64,000 nucleotides of DNA from a virus, in IMG/VR virus record IMGVR_UViG_3300045988_097708, positions 1 to 64,000 of that record; one strand, 5' to 3'. Below the pieces are notes generated by a model. It was not told the origin of the DNA. It saw nothing but the letters and a program-made list of their open reading frames with translations, and searched no databases. Both the position numbers and the translations under genes were made by a program. Positions 41,672 through 43,490 of the stretch are shown one piece after another. The first letter of the stretch is position 1, and each line of letters starts with the position of its first letter.

Positions 41672-41747
41672 TGGTGGGACATCGGGGACTTGAACCCGGA
41701 ACCTGGCCGTTATAAGCAGCCTGCTCTACCGATTGAGCTAATGTCCC
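41672..41747 (-). tRNA. tRNA-Ile (anticodon TAT), CCA encoded
   Basis: Hand fold: acceptor GGGACAT/ATGTCCC, D arm GCTC AATCGGTA GAGC, anticodon stem GGCTG/CGGCC, loop CTTATAA, T arm CCGGG TTCAAGT CCCCG (one C-C mismatch). Confidence 0.7.
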
Positions 41748-41894
41748 GTAGGTGGGCGGCGGGGTCGGTCCGAACCGCGCCGCCCAAAAGGGGGAATGGC
41801 GGCCTGCCTGTATTTCAACAGGAGCTGGAATGAACGAAACCGGAGCTGCTTCTTACGGCCACAGCTTTTCAAGGAGGTCCATGATGGACCGTTG

Positions 41895-42011
41895 TGCGGA
41901 AGGCGGGGATCGAACCCGCGAAACGACGATGTTGGAAACCAGAAAATGATGAGGGAGAGTTTTGTGTTTCGTATGCGGTGAAAATATCGTTTGCCCCAAT
42001 GGCGCTTCCGC
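41895..42011 (-). ncRNA. tRNA-Gly-like element: intact acceptor and T arm, scrambled 70-nt core, no CCA
   Basis: 5' GCGGAAG pairs with 3' CTTCCGC; T arm GCGGG TTCGATC CCCGC; TTTCCAA loop-like segment without a closing stem. Confidence 0.4.
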
Positions 42012-42177
42012 GTATAGAACGGAGAGGCGGGCGGGGGAATGCCCGCCTCTCCTGTGGGGGCGTTCCTTCGTTCGCTGTCACGCCCAAATCATGCTACCGG
42101 CTGGTTCCACCCGGCGACACCGCTGCCAGACGCGGAGGTTTCATTCCTGACGGGGGAAGTTATCCATCAGGCGGGCA

Positions 42178-42254
42178 TGGAGCAGCGTAGCGGATTTGAA
42201 CCGCCACTCCCAGCTTGGAAGGCTGGTGTGCTGACCGTTGAACACTAACGCTGC
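42178..42254 (-). tRNA. tRNA-Gly (anticodon TCC), CCA encoded
   Basis: Hand fold: acceptor GCAGCGT/ACGCTGC, anticodon stem CCAGC/GCTGG, loop CTTCCAA, T arm GGCGG TTCAAAT CCGCT. Confidence 0.85.
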
Positions 42255-42579
42255 AAATTTCGCGGGGACACAGTTGGTGGGGTGCCGGTGCGGATGGCTA
42301 CTGACCTACACGGCGGCCTTGTCCAAAGACAGCCGCCACCACGCCGCTTCCACATCTACAGGTTTCGCCTCGGATTTTCGCCGCACACGCCGGCACCCGA
42401 ACCAACCACGGAACTTTTCAGCCCTGCGCCGGTACGTCGGTCGCATCCGTTCATCTTTACAAAGCCGGTGCCAGCCAATACATAAATTACTTCGTCCTGC
42501 CGCTTTCGTACAGCGCACAGGAAAGACCACTTCCGCAGGCTTACGCTCCGTGCGGCTGCGAGGCAAGAGGTCACGCCTA

Positions 42580-42694
42580 TGGTGGAGATGGGAGGATTCG
42601 AACCTCCGTTCGCCGCGTGTGCTCCCGTGTCACTCACACACGGCTGTTCCTGCCGGGAGTTGCAGAACGCAATTACCGACTCTGCCACATCTCC
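42580..42694 (-). ncRNA. 115-nt class-II tRNA-like gene with expanded anticodon loop and about 33-nt variable arm, CCA encoded
   Basis: Acceptor GGAGATG/CATCTCC, D arm TGGCAGAGTCGGTAATTGC, T arm GGAGG TTCGAAT CCTCC. The anticodon arm is TTCTGC AACTCCCG GCAGGA; variable-arm stem GCCGTGTGTG/CACACGCGGC. Confidence 0.55.
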
Positions 42695-42839
42695 ATGAGG
42701 GGGGTGCCGGTCTTTCCCGGCTGTCACCGCTGCGTGTCGGCTGCTTGCGGTTAGCCCCGATAGGTACACGTTTCTGCTTCCTTCTTGTGCTCTATCCCCG
42801 GAAGCCCGTTCAGCTTGTACTTCGCATGAGCACTGGATC

Positions 42840-42921
42840 TGGTGCATACGGTTGGAATCGAACCAACGACGGGGATCAGCGCCGGGAACGCTGTGTGCTC
42901 TACCGACTGAGCTACGTCTGC
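42840..42921 (-). tRNA. 82-nt tRNA-Gly(CCC)-like gene with extra nucleotides flanking the anticodon arm
   Basis: Acceptor GCAGACG/CGTATGC (one G-A mismatch), D arm GCTC AGTCGGTA GAGC, 3-nt connector, stem CAGCG/CGCTG, loop TTCCCGG, 9-nt variable loop, T arm GTTGG TTCGATT CCAAC. Confidence 0.55.
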
Positions 42922-43172
42922 ATGAGGGGGGTGCTCGTCTTTCCGAGCCGTCAGCCAATCATGTGATGGCGCACAGGCGCTTCTACGTCAGCAGAGTTTT
43001 AAGCGTTCCCGAACACACCTGCTCGAAGGAGAACTTAATGGCCTCGCTTTTGGGCACGTCTCCATGTGTCCGCAATTACAACATCGAGGCTTGAGGGGCT
43101 TACTTCAGGACTTCGCATCACCCATACGGCTGTCCCGCTATACGCTCGTCACTCGCGGTGTCCACGTAGAAT

Positions 43173-43248
43173 TGGAGGTATCGGTGGGAATCGGACCCAC
43201 GACCTGCTCATTACGAATGAGCTGCTCTGCCAGCTGAGCTACGACACC
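43173..43248 (-). tRNA. tRNA-Thr (anticodon CGT), CCA encoded, unusual T loop TCCGATT
   Basis: Acceptor GGTGTCG/CGATACC, D arm GCTC AGCTGGCA GAGC, anticodon stem GCTCA/TGAGC, loop TTCGTAA, T stem GTGGG/CCCAC. Confidence 0.75.
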
Positions 43249-43461
43249 GGATCCCCACCTTGTTTACGTCCTGGTGGGCGAGCTGACGTGCGGCGGAAAG
43301 GGGTTTGCGCCATGGTGGCCGCGTTCCTGCCAGAATTGCGCTGGGGACACCGGAAGAATGGATGTAAGACCGGTGCAGCCTTTCTTACGGAAGGGCTTAT
43401 ATAATTCGGGGGGTACACCGAAGCCGTCGGGGAAGGGGTCTCCCCTTCGGCAATTTTAAGT

Positions 43462-43490
43462 ATGCGCCCCGTGTCAAGGGAACTTCTGAA
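43462..43490 (-). promoter_or_regulatory. CCCTTGACACGG motif copy a, upstream of the tRNA array
   Basis: Minus strand gttCCCTTGACACGGGGcgcatacTTAAAAT; first element upstream of the array leader. Confidence 0.5.

Follow-up and report, generated by a model that had tools for sequence, protein, structure and literature searches.

We examined an array of six tRNA-shaped genes, separated by long spacers, on the minus strand (43477 to 41672) of a 64,000-nucleotide (nt) stretch of viral DNA, positions 1 to 64,000 of IMG/VR record IMGVR_UViG_3300045988_097708 (hereafter, the window). Three of the genes are canonical tRNAs, for Thr (CGT), Gly (TCC) and Ile (TAT), and the other three are aberrant elements referred to here as tRNA-like A, B and C. 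In the 5' to 3' order of the array the inter-gene spacers measure 251, 145, 325, 166 and 144 nt, and the second, third and fourth of them contain RNA modules (motifs 2, 1 and 3, respectively) in which base-paired helices show compensatory changes among related phages. An initial annotation, made from the sequence alone, had described a six-member array of tRNAs and tRNA-like genes with long spacers, and this was confirmed by ARAGORN, by the Rfam tRNA model and by direct reading of the minus strand. It had also proposed that the segment is a composite of tRNAs and structured RNAs, not a plain tRNA operon; the covariation found across the motif 1 family, together with the recognition of spacers 2 and 4 as conserved, folded modules, supports that proposal. 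The features are listed in Table 1.

Sequence conservation across the array agrees with a composite organization. From the leader to spacer 4, the segments that make up the 5' two-thirds of the array are 91–100% identical in 11–16 close relatives, the variable tRNA-like A being the exception, whereas the flanking genes are 72–92% identical (72–92% for a 54-amino-acid open reading frame (ORF) and 81–84% for the HU gene). The leader is 95–99% identical in 16 related phage contigs, compared to the 72–92% of the adjacent 54-amino-acid ORF, and tRNA-Gly(TCC) is 95–100% identical in relatives. All three canonical tRNAs are called by ARAGORN and score above the gathering score of the Rfam tRNA family (RF00005), which is 29, and thus belong to this family.

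Table 1. Positions of the array features in the window.
Feature	Position	Strand	Basis or description
Array-head motif TTGACACGGGGCGCATACT	43459..43477	-	Direct reading; no canonical sigma-70 promoter
Leader	43249..43458	-	About 210 nt, hairpin-rich, holds GTACCCCCC; identity among relatives
tRNA-Thr(CGT)	43173..43248	-	ARAGORN; Rfam tRNA, 64.1 bits
Spacer 1	42922..43172	-	Conserved 5' block (43071-43172), two-version middle cassette, 3' hairpin
tRNA-like A	42840..42921	-	ARAGORN Gly(ccc), 82 nt; Rfam tRNA, 47.4 bits with insertions
Motif 2, structured RNA	42695..42839	-	About 140 nt; homologues and compensatory changes; two pseudoknot-type helix pairs, 3' GAAAGA-loop hairpin
tRNA-like B	42580..42694	-	115 nt; Rfam tRNA, 43.6 bits over 42583-42694; ARAGORN only with introns allowed
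Motif 1, structured RNA	42265..42579	-	315 nt; covariance model, covariation; most widespread module
tRNA-Gly(TCC)	42178..42254	-	ARAGORN; Rfam tRNA, 42.1 bits
Motif 3, structured RNA	42056..42177	-	About 120 nt; starts directly after the tRNA-Gly CCA; homologues and compensatory changes
G+C-rich hairpin, AUUCCCCC loop	42021..42052	-	12 base pairs; direct reading
tRNA-like C (earlier "relic")	41892..42011	-	Direct reading
Spacer 5	41748..41891	-	Hairpins, including GCCGCC-AUUCCCCCUUUUG-GGCGGC (about 41790-41815)
tRNA-Ile(TAT)	41672..41747	-	ARAGORN; Rfam tRNA, 60.9 bits
HU-family DNA-binding protein gene	41350..41622	-	Pfam Bac_DNA_binding, E = 7.5e-26; co-oriented with the array
Terminator-like hairpin	41267..41287	-	Terminator scan; first on the array strand
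Copies of TTGACACGG-N-GC-NN-ATACT	43459-43477 (-), 58244-58262 (+), 54417-54435 (-), 39222-39240 (+)		

Structured RNAs in the spacers

Motif 1 was first seen by comparison with L002, an otherwise unrelated phage contig that carries a near-identical 315-nt spacer, again after a tRNA-like gene. A 19-mer of the motif is found exactly in at least 119 IMG/VR contigs, and among the matches listed there are about 95 distinct versions, down to approximately 31% overall identity to the window. ARAGORN called a tRNA upstream in about 70 of the 122 loci among these matches, mostly ending 145–178 nt before the 19-mer, and in about 33 of the 122 a downstream tRNA as well, at +150 to +225. The identity of the upstream tRNA varies (Gly, Trp, Met, Ser, Thr, Phe, or aberrant). 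The motif has an invariant core, AACGGAUGCGACC-N-GGCGCAGGGCUGAAAAGUUCCGUGG, and its central 45 nt are essentially unchanging among the loci, which were chosen by exact k-mers.

The secondary structure of motif 1 was built by hand from group-wise comparisons and turned into a covariance model, with which the window and 99 loci were searched. The model gave exactly one match per locus, scoring 299 bits in the window (E = 1.7e-87), with an overall range of 78–338 bits and 78–115 bits for the distant groups. Covariation was counted on the model-based alignment of 94 distinct sequences and compared to 500 shuffles. Standard pairs occupied 96.7% of cells, as against 82.2 ± 0.3% in the shuffled alignments and 31–52% when the partners were slid, and 741 cells showed double changes (199 ± 17 shuffled). 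A covariation test in homologous loci had been suggested in the initial annotation; here 38 of the 56 pairs of motif 1 changed on both sides (23.0 ± 1.6 shuffled), and motifs 2 and 3 show compensatory changes. None of the 500 shuffles reached the observed measures. The long-range helix that closes the 3' domain covaries at all eight of its pairs, with up to six pair types. RNAalifold applied to raw MAFFT alignments gave only part of this structure, and with a blind helix finder the signal was lost in G/U-rich noise. The P1 hairpin and an inner extension of P6 (in the window, GUGCGG/CCGCAC) appeared in some groups taken singly but in no common register, and were left out of the model. A protein-coding reading of motif 1 was also considered, and was rejected based on the inconsistent strand and length of the ORFs and on insertions and deletions that are not multiples of three; there is no conserved ORF in the motif. 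The compensatory changes and the lack of a conserved ORF indicate that motif 1 is a structured non-coding RNA.

Copies of ACGGA are found in motif 1 at 42546-42550, in the P2 loop, and at 42445-42449, 5' of the P5 hairpin. Either could pair with the invariant UCCGU at 42405-42409 (minus strand), and the P2-loop copy changes only in wobble-compatible ways; these elements may represent an alternative or tertiary pairing. Resemblances to known RNAs (the cobalamin riboswitch, P4 of RNase P, the sarcin-ricin loop) were dropped, as they are without Rfam support and the resembling bases are not conserved.

The genes next to motif 1 vary by phage: its upstream neighbour is an XRE-type regulator or an integrase, while its downstream side is occupied by HU or by methylase and terminase genes. 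No constant partner protein was found within ±4.5 kb of the motif 1 loci. This variation makes a dedicated protein partner or a cis-regulatory role unlikely. One group of loci (L060, L022, L118, L025, L015 and L088) carries the unit of tRNA and motif 1 directly downstream of a gene for an XRE-type protein with a helix-turn-helix (HTH) domain, although the HTH gene is absent upstream in L015 and L022. Between the HTH gene and the unit, loci of this type have a terminator-like hairpin with a T run and a GGGCGGGGCTTCGGCTCCGCCC hairpin. The position of the HTH gene would place the RNA near an immunity or early region in this group.

Motif 2, whose 22-mer core is found in 43 IMG/VR contigs, is bounded in these loci by the CCA of tRNA-like A on one side and by the next tRNA or tRNA-like gene (Trp, Gln, Gly, A or B) on the other. 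The junctions are fixed: the upstream CCA lies at -96 to -98 from the 22-mer in every locus in which one was called, and the 31 loci with a called downstream tRNA all have its start at +45, with one exception (range, +45 to +50). Homologues in more distant loci are approximately 80% identical. The sequences fall into three types, with compensatory changes in helices H1, H3, H4 and H6; at each position without gaps, pairing is possible in 26 or more of the 29 sequences. Because H1 crosses H3 and H4 crosses H5, the fold is predicted to contain two pseudoknots. The motif ends in a C-rich tail (42695 to 42705); this ACCCCCCTCAT tail is limited to the sequence type of the window, and the other types have AAACATA.

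Homologues of motif 3 were found in 35 loci, and in a distant group motif 3 lies 0.8–3.9 kb from motif 1. Helices K1–K4 show compensatory changes, and in the first hairpin an AUxACUUCCCCC loop stays constant while the stem covaries. Motifs 2 and 3 are less secure than motif 1, given the few independent lineages in which they are represented. The hairpin that follows motif 3 (42021-42052) behaves in a similar manner to the first hairpin of the motif: its stem is replaced in L109, L126 and L065 (GGGAGGAGG/CCTCCTCCC in L109 and L126) and its loop stays C-rich. It has no U tract behind it and was not called as a terminator. The initial annotation had noted two hairpins sharing a ATTCCCCC loop, and these are present at 42021-42052 and at about 41790-41815, the latter in spacer 5.

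The remaining spacers and the leader are conserved to different degrees. Spacer 1 begins with 102 nt that recur in 28 loci (87–100% identity). Its middle (42952-43070, compared to L008, L013, L062 and L109) comes in two unrelated versions between the same 5' block and the same GAAAGA hairpin, which looks like cassette exchange. At its 3' end is the hairpin GCTCG-GAAAGA-CGAGC (42933-42948), followed by ACCCCCCTCAT (42922-42932). Two GAAAGA-loop hairpins, each followed by ACCCCCCTCA(T), had been described previously, and they do lie directly 5' of tRNA-like A and B, at 42922-42948 and 42695-42720; GTACCCCCC is likewise found in the leader where reported, at about 43408-43416. No distant homologues of the leader were found. 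Spacer 5 is 76–86% identical in 20 relatives, a rate about that of HU.

The initial annotation had been unable to place the spacers in a known family and had called for an Rfam search. Rfam 15 yields tRNA only: searches of 41200-43800 at the gathering threshold and at E ≤ 10, and of six divergent loci at E ≤ 0.1, gave nothing beyond tRNA-clan matches and sub-threshold chance matches. The spacers are thus not members of GOLLD, ROOL, HEARO, OLE, raiA or any other Rfam 15 family. We found no description of these motifs in the literature, the automated catalogue of 8,495 IMG/VR candidate RNAs (PMC10690425) not having been compared.

The tRNA-like elements

tRNA-like A has normal acceptor, D and T arms and an ACCA end. 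What sets it apart is a pair of additional nt ahead of the anticodon stem, together with a UUCCCGG loop and a variable region of 9 nt. Forty variants have a scaffold in common, consisting of the acceptor stem GCAGACG/CGTCTGC, discriminator A, CCA and D arm, with a T arm that covaries. The sequence between the D and T arms is unrelated among these variants, which have a UUCCCGG loop, a stem of 4 base pairs with a 5-nt loop, a 10-nt AGGAGG loop, or longer inserts, and this anticodon region differs even between phages with 98–99% identical motif 1. In the commonest variant (L024, L046, L065, L094, L109, L128 and others) CCAGGAGGUAUG stands in for the anticodon loop, and a short stem thereby carries AGGAGG, a perfect Shine-Dalgarno-like sequence; in another, the 5-nt loop is borne by the stem CCCC-GAAAU-GGGG. 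The copy in the window contains one G-A mismatch in the acceptor stem (CGTATGC, as against CGTCTGC in most relatives).

tRNA-like B combines an acceptor stem (GGAGATG/CATCTCC), a T arm and an ACCA end with an 8-nt "anticodon" loop, AACUCCCG, and a 10-base-pair extra arm, and is found in 4 relatives at 95–98% identity. We considered and rejected the possibility that it is a transfer-messenger RNA (tmRNA): the Rfam tmRNA model scored 30 bits against a gathering score of 47, with the alignment limited to the tRNA-like ends, and ARAGORN in its tmRNA mode called none.

tRNA-like C went undetected by ARAGORN and Rfam. It has a 7-base-pair acceptor stem (GCGGAAG, 42005-42011, with CTTCCGC, 41896-41902) and a T arm (GCGGG-TTCGATC-CCCGC, 41903-41919), with an A+T-richer insert of about 85 nt instead of the D and anticodon arms, and its 3' end is ACAA, not NCCA. 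The initial annotation had called this element a tRNA relic, a label that does not fit its counterpart in L089, which reads GCAGGAG...GCGGG-TTCGACT-CCCGC-CTCCTGC-T-CCA with a different insert. As L089 keeps the same architecture with two compensatory changes in the acceptor stem, the element is maintained, not decaying.

A decoding tRNA has an anticodon stem of 5 base pairs, a 7-nt loop with U33 and standard spacing, and A, B and C all lack this combination. They hold on to the acceptor and T arms and are therefore best described as tRNA-like elements, not as tRNAs. The acceptor/T-arm minihelix and the NCCA end are the determinants for RNase P and for 3' processing, and the comparisons indicate that selection preserves these and not the capacity to decode. 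A consequence is that the tRNA gene counts given by annotation pipelines for such phages would in part represent non-decoding processing or scaffold elements, which bears on how codon usage is interpreted.

Interpretation of the array

We consider it likely that the segment is a tRNA-punctuated, polycistronic non-coding RNA array of an integrase-encoding tailed phage of gut Oscillospiraceae, and that it releases several stable RNAs. The structured RNAs are probably cut from one transcript by the tRNA-processing enzymes of the cell. Each structured RNA abuts a tRNA-type NCCA end on its 5' side and, in the window and in many relatives, the 5' end of a tRNA or tRNA-like gene on its 3' side; with this bracketing, host RNase P would cut their 3' ends and tRNA 3' processing would free their 5' ends. 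A cut by RNase P at the 5' end of tRNA-Gly(TCC), for example, would set the 3' end of motif 1. The single transcript would start near 43460-43480, run through HU to the hairpin at 41267-41287, and carry the three decoding tRNAs, the three tRNA-like elements, which do not decode, and at least three RNAs that fold independently (315, about 140 and about 120 nt), with the leader, spacer 1 and spacer 5 as possible further modules. The outcome would be a set of discrete stable RNAs, comparable to those released by mitochondrial tRNA punctuation or from the tRNA cluster of phage T4. In this scheme the tRNA-like elements have kept only what processing needs (acceptor stem, T arm and NCCA), leaving their anticodon regions free to vary or to carry cargo. 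As for function, the lack of a constant partner gene together with the invariant 45-nt core leads us to a working guess that the released RNAs act in trans on a conserved host component; the invariance of the core by itself points to a host target that is conserved. Antisense or binding surfaces may be provided by the C-rich loops that are conserved in motif 3 and in the neighbouring hairpins.

Several observations weigh against this interpretation or limit it. Co-transcription and processing are argued from the anatomy of the locus, and no canonical promoter precedes the array, a scan of 41000-44000 having given no sigma-70-type site. The collection of motif 1 loci by exact k-mers inflates the invariance of the core, which is in part imposed by it. 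Motifs 2 and 3 occur in only two to three sequence types, so that their compensatory changes represent few independent events. ARAGORN did not call the upstream tRNA in many of the 122 motif 1 loci listed; in the one group of such loci that was read directly, a 7-base-pair helix and ACCA are still present upstream. An encoded CCA blocks RNase Z in Bacillus, and the tRNAs of the array encode CCA, which complicates the choice of a nuclease that would free the 5' ends. Folding energies are not lower than those of shuffled sequences for most segments, motif 1 included (z = 0.04). Given that the z-score is near zero even for the validated motif 1, we consider thermodynamics uninformative here.

Comparable arrangements are found in several systems. 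The tRNA cluster of phage T4 encodes two small stable RNAs (species 1 and 2, also RNA C and D), matured from a common precursor by host tRNA processing. The array described here has the same layout, with non-tRNA RNAs inside a phage tRNA cluster, on the same strand and with no terminator between, and its RNAs would probably be released in a like manner; it differs in that the T4 RNAs are shorter and unrelated in sequence, whereas here there are at least three larger modules, tRNA-like elements as extra punctuation, and a Gram-positive anaerobe as host. tRNA-like structures serve as RNase P and RNase Z signals that free adjacent RNAs in the tRNA-miRNA encoded RNAs (TMERs) of murid gammaherpesvirus 68, in MALAT1-mascRNA and in mitochondrial tRNA punctuation, but these are eukaryotic systems with transcription by RNA polymerase III or in mitochondria, and with unrelated cargo. 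Engineered tRNA scaffolds, which stabilise recombinant RNAs, and polycistronic tRNA-guide RNA (gRNA) arrays share the design of tRNA-like A and C, in which the acceptor and T arms are kept and the anticodon or D region is replaced; the array differs from them in being natural, and the insert as functional cargo is only putative. GOLLD and ROOL are large, covariation-supported RNAs of unknown function that are often found in prophages beside tRNA genes (PMC5737381; PMC12286853). The motifs described here have no Rfam similarity to them at E ≤ 10, motif 1 is 315 nt as compared to about 580–800 nt, and several small modules are chained. Bacterial Y RNAs (YrlA) are non-coding RNAs with a tRNA mimic, some of them phage-borne (PMC4201824), and resemble the array in associating a tRNA mimic with a non-coding RNA, although in the array the tRNA-like element and the structured RNA appear to be separate units. 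No Ro60 (Rsr) gene was found among the recurrent neighbour gene clusters scanned against Pfam, and there was no Rfam match to Y RNA. RNAs borne in tRNA clusters are a kind already known, and what is new here is the RNA classes that lie outside the catalogued families and the proposed use of degenerate tRNA-like elements as punctuation or scaffold.

The C-rich loops and tails raise the alternative that the array encodes trans-acting antisense small RNAs (sRNAs), which would base-pair with mRNAs of the host or the phage at their G-rich Shine-Dalgarno regions, in the manner of RoxS/RsaE. This is compatible with a tRNA-punctuated array, and the likeness to these Firmicute sRNAs lies in unpaired C-rich motifs on hairpin loops. 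On the transcribed strand C occurs in seven runs of at least five and G in none, but this enrichment is modest (3.1 ± 1.7 in shuffled sequences, with 33 of 1000 shuffles reaching seven). The initial annotation had proposed such targeting, and the part of the proposal that concerns the loops still stands: the C-rich loop of motif 3 is constant on a covarying stem and that of the 42021-42052 hairpin survives replacement of its stem, which fits the idea and does not prove it. The part that concerns the ACCCCCCTCAT tail is weakened, as motif 2 lacks this tail in its other sequence types. There is no C-rich signature in motif 1, although it is the module with the highest conservation, and there is no sequence match or Rfam match to RsaE/RoxS. 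We consider antisense action a real but minor possibility as the account of the array. The tRNA-like elements, perhaps with the flanking RNAs, could instead serve as decoys that absorb anticodon nucleases or other tRNA-directed host immunity. This would explain the turnover of the anticodon region, as tRNA-like A differs in its anticodon arm between phages in which the flanking RNAs are 98–99% identical, and changes in the anticodon loop are known to let phage tRNAs escape anticodon nucleases. In many variants, however, the loop is 5 or 10 nt long or an anticodon stem cannot be recognised, which would make them poor mimics of any given tRNA, three covarying non-tRNA modules are left unexplained, and no defence or anti-defence gene is consistently near the motif 1 loci. 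We therefore regard the decoy explanation as rather improbable.

Recombination offers another view, in which the modules are selfish or mobile cassettes that spread among phage tRNA arrays by exchange at the tRNA-like flanks, their structure serving mobility or being its remnant. The order and combination of modules vary, with motif 3 lying apart from motif 1 in other phages, motif 1 is near-identical in otherwise unrelated contexts such as L002, and spacer 1 has alternative middles. Yet the modules lack terminal repeats and target duplications, no recombinase or endonuclease gene is associated with them, and covariation across divergent lineages signifies long-term selection on the fold, which mosaic exchange alone does not explain; we give this view only a slight chance. 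The chance is slimmer still that the RNAs are cis-acting leaders (a riboswitch, attenuator or processive-antitermination RNA) for HU and the cysteine desulfurase here and for methylase and terminase genes elsewhere. The array is co-oriented with HU and directly upstream of it, and in other phages motif 1 is upstream of ParB-methylase, terS-like and terL genes on the same strand. Against this, the downstream genes vary between phages, the bracketing tRNAs would sever the RNAs from the downstream message, no terminator or expression platform follows the RNAs, and Rfam gave no match to a riboswitch or leader family. An ordinary tRNA operon with decaying, functionless spacers and odd tRNAs would account for the near-zero folding z-scores of most spacers and for the inability of three of the six tRNA-shaped genes to decode normally. 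This reading is already contradicted by the conservation of the spacers above that of the flanking genes, by the massive covariation of motif 1, and by the compensatory changes in motifs 2 and 3 and in the tRNA-like stems, and we consider it exceedingly improbable.

Beyond the tRNA-punctuated array that we favour, a more speculative and rather doubtful extension would make the locus a natural "tRNA-scaffold operon". In such an operon the degenerate tRNA-like chassis would have two roles, punctuating the transcript and presenting exchangeable cargo loops (such as AGGAGG Shine-Dalgarno mimics or C-rich loops), and the output would be a mixture of new structured RNAs. Motif 1, with its ornate fold of many helices and its invariant 45-nt core, would in this view be either a ribozyme of a new type or an RNA-only particle that assembles itself, and its target would be some conserved machine of the host, for example the ribosome, RNA polymerase or an immune sensor.

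At least three covariation-supported RNA classes that are absent from Rfam 15 join the short list of phage-borne structured RNAs, and motif 1 alone is present in at least 119 gut-phage contigs. If our interpretation of the array is correct, bacterial viruses may use tRNA punctuation to obtain several stable RNAs from one promoter, in parallel with the TMERs and with synthetic tRNA-gRNA arrays. The defined boundaries and invariant core provide ready constructs for structure determination and for partner pull-downs.

Genomic setting and transcription signals

HU had been reported to follow shortly after tRNA-Ile, and its ATG at 41622 leaves a gap of 49 nt; the gene has the ribosome-binding site AAAGGAGG. 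HU is found downstream of the array solely in the phage group of the window (24 loci). A terminator scan found no terminator-like site within the array, the next one being the hairpin past HU, which probably ends the transcription unit. A promoter-like element had been placed at the head of the array, a claim that was not confirmed: the sequence TTGACA is present at 43472-43477, but without a -10 box at a workable spacing, and the promoter scan was negative. The TTGACACGGGGCGCATACT motif at this position may be a promoter or operator. Its more general form, TTGACACGG-N-GC-NN-ATACT, occurs four times in the window at three or fewer mismatches, as against 0.37 expected, and a similar copy lies ahead of a small ORF in the relative L001 (2950-2968). 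A sigma-70 promoter would be spaced differently, and the element may be a phage-specific promoter or operator.

The genes around the array encode an integrase, two Rha-family regulators, a class-V aminotransferase and HU, and farther off in the window are a tape measure protein, a DNA methyltransferase and a PAPS-reductase-like gene; the window is from a tailed phage with an integrase gene. The core of motif 1 was found in 6 of 185,579 species-representative genomes, in each case on a contig of a metagenome-assembled genome (MAG), mostly of Oscillospiraceae, Lawsonibacter or Oscillibacter. The initial annotation had named an exact match to a host chromosomal tRNA operon as a finding that would speak against a composite transcript; the confinement of the core to MAG contigs of six genomes indicates that the array is phage-borne and no copy of such an operon. 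No cultured phage in GenBank carries the array, similarity being found only in two uncultured contigs from human faeces.

A second pair of tRNA genes in the window, Trp-cca (15438-15512) and Asn-gtt (15573-15648) on the plus strand, is separated by a 60-nt spacer, and the covariance model found no copy of motif 1 beside it. Just downstream of HU, on the same strand as the array, is the class-V aminotransferase gene (40103-41143, minus strand), which encodes a cysteine desulfurase of the NifS/IscS-like type. Cysteine desulfurases supply sulfur for tRNA thiolation, so that a link between this gene and the tRNAs of the array is conceivable. The last tRNA of the array has the anticodon TAT (Ile) in the window and CAT at the same position in all close relatives (L001, 4521-4596, and others); a single C34-to-T change would abolish the requirement for lysidine modification in the reading of AUA.

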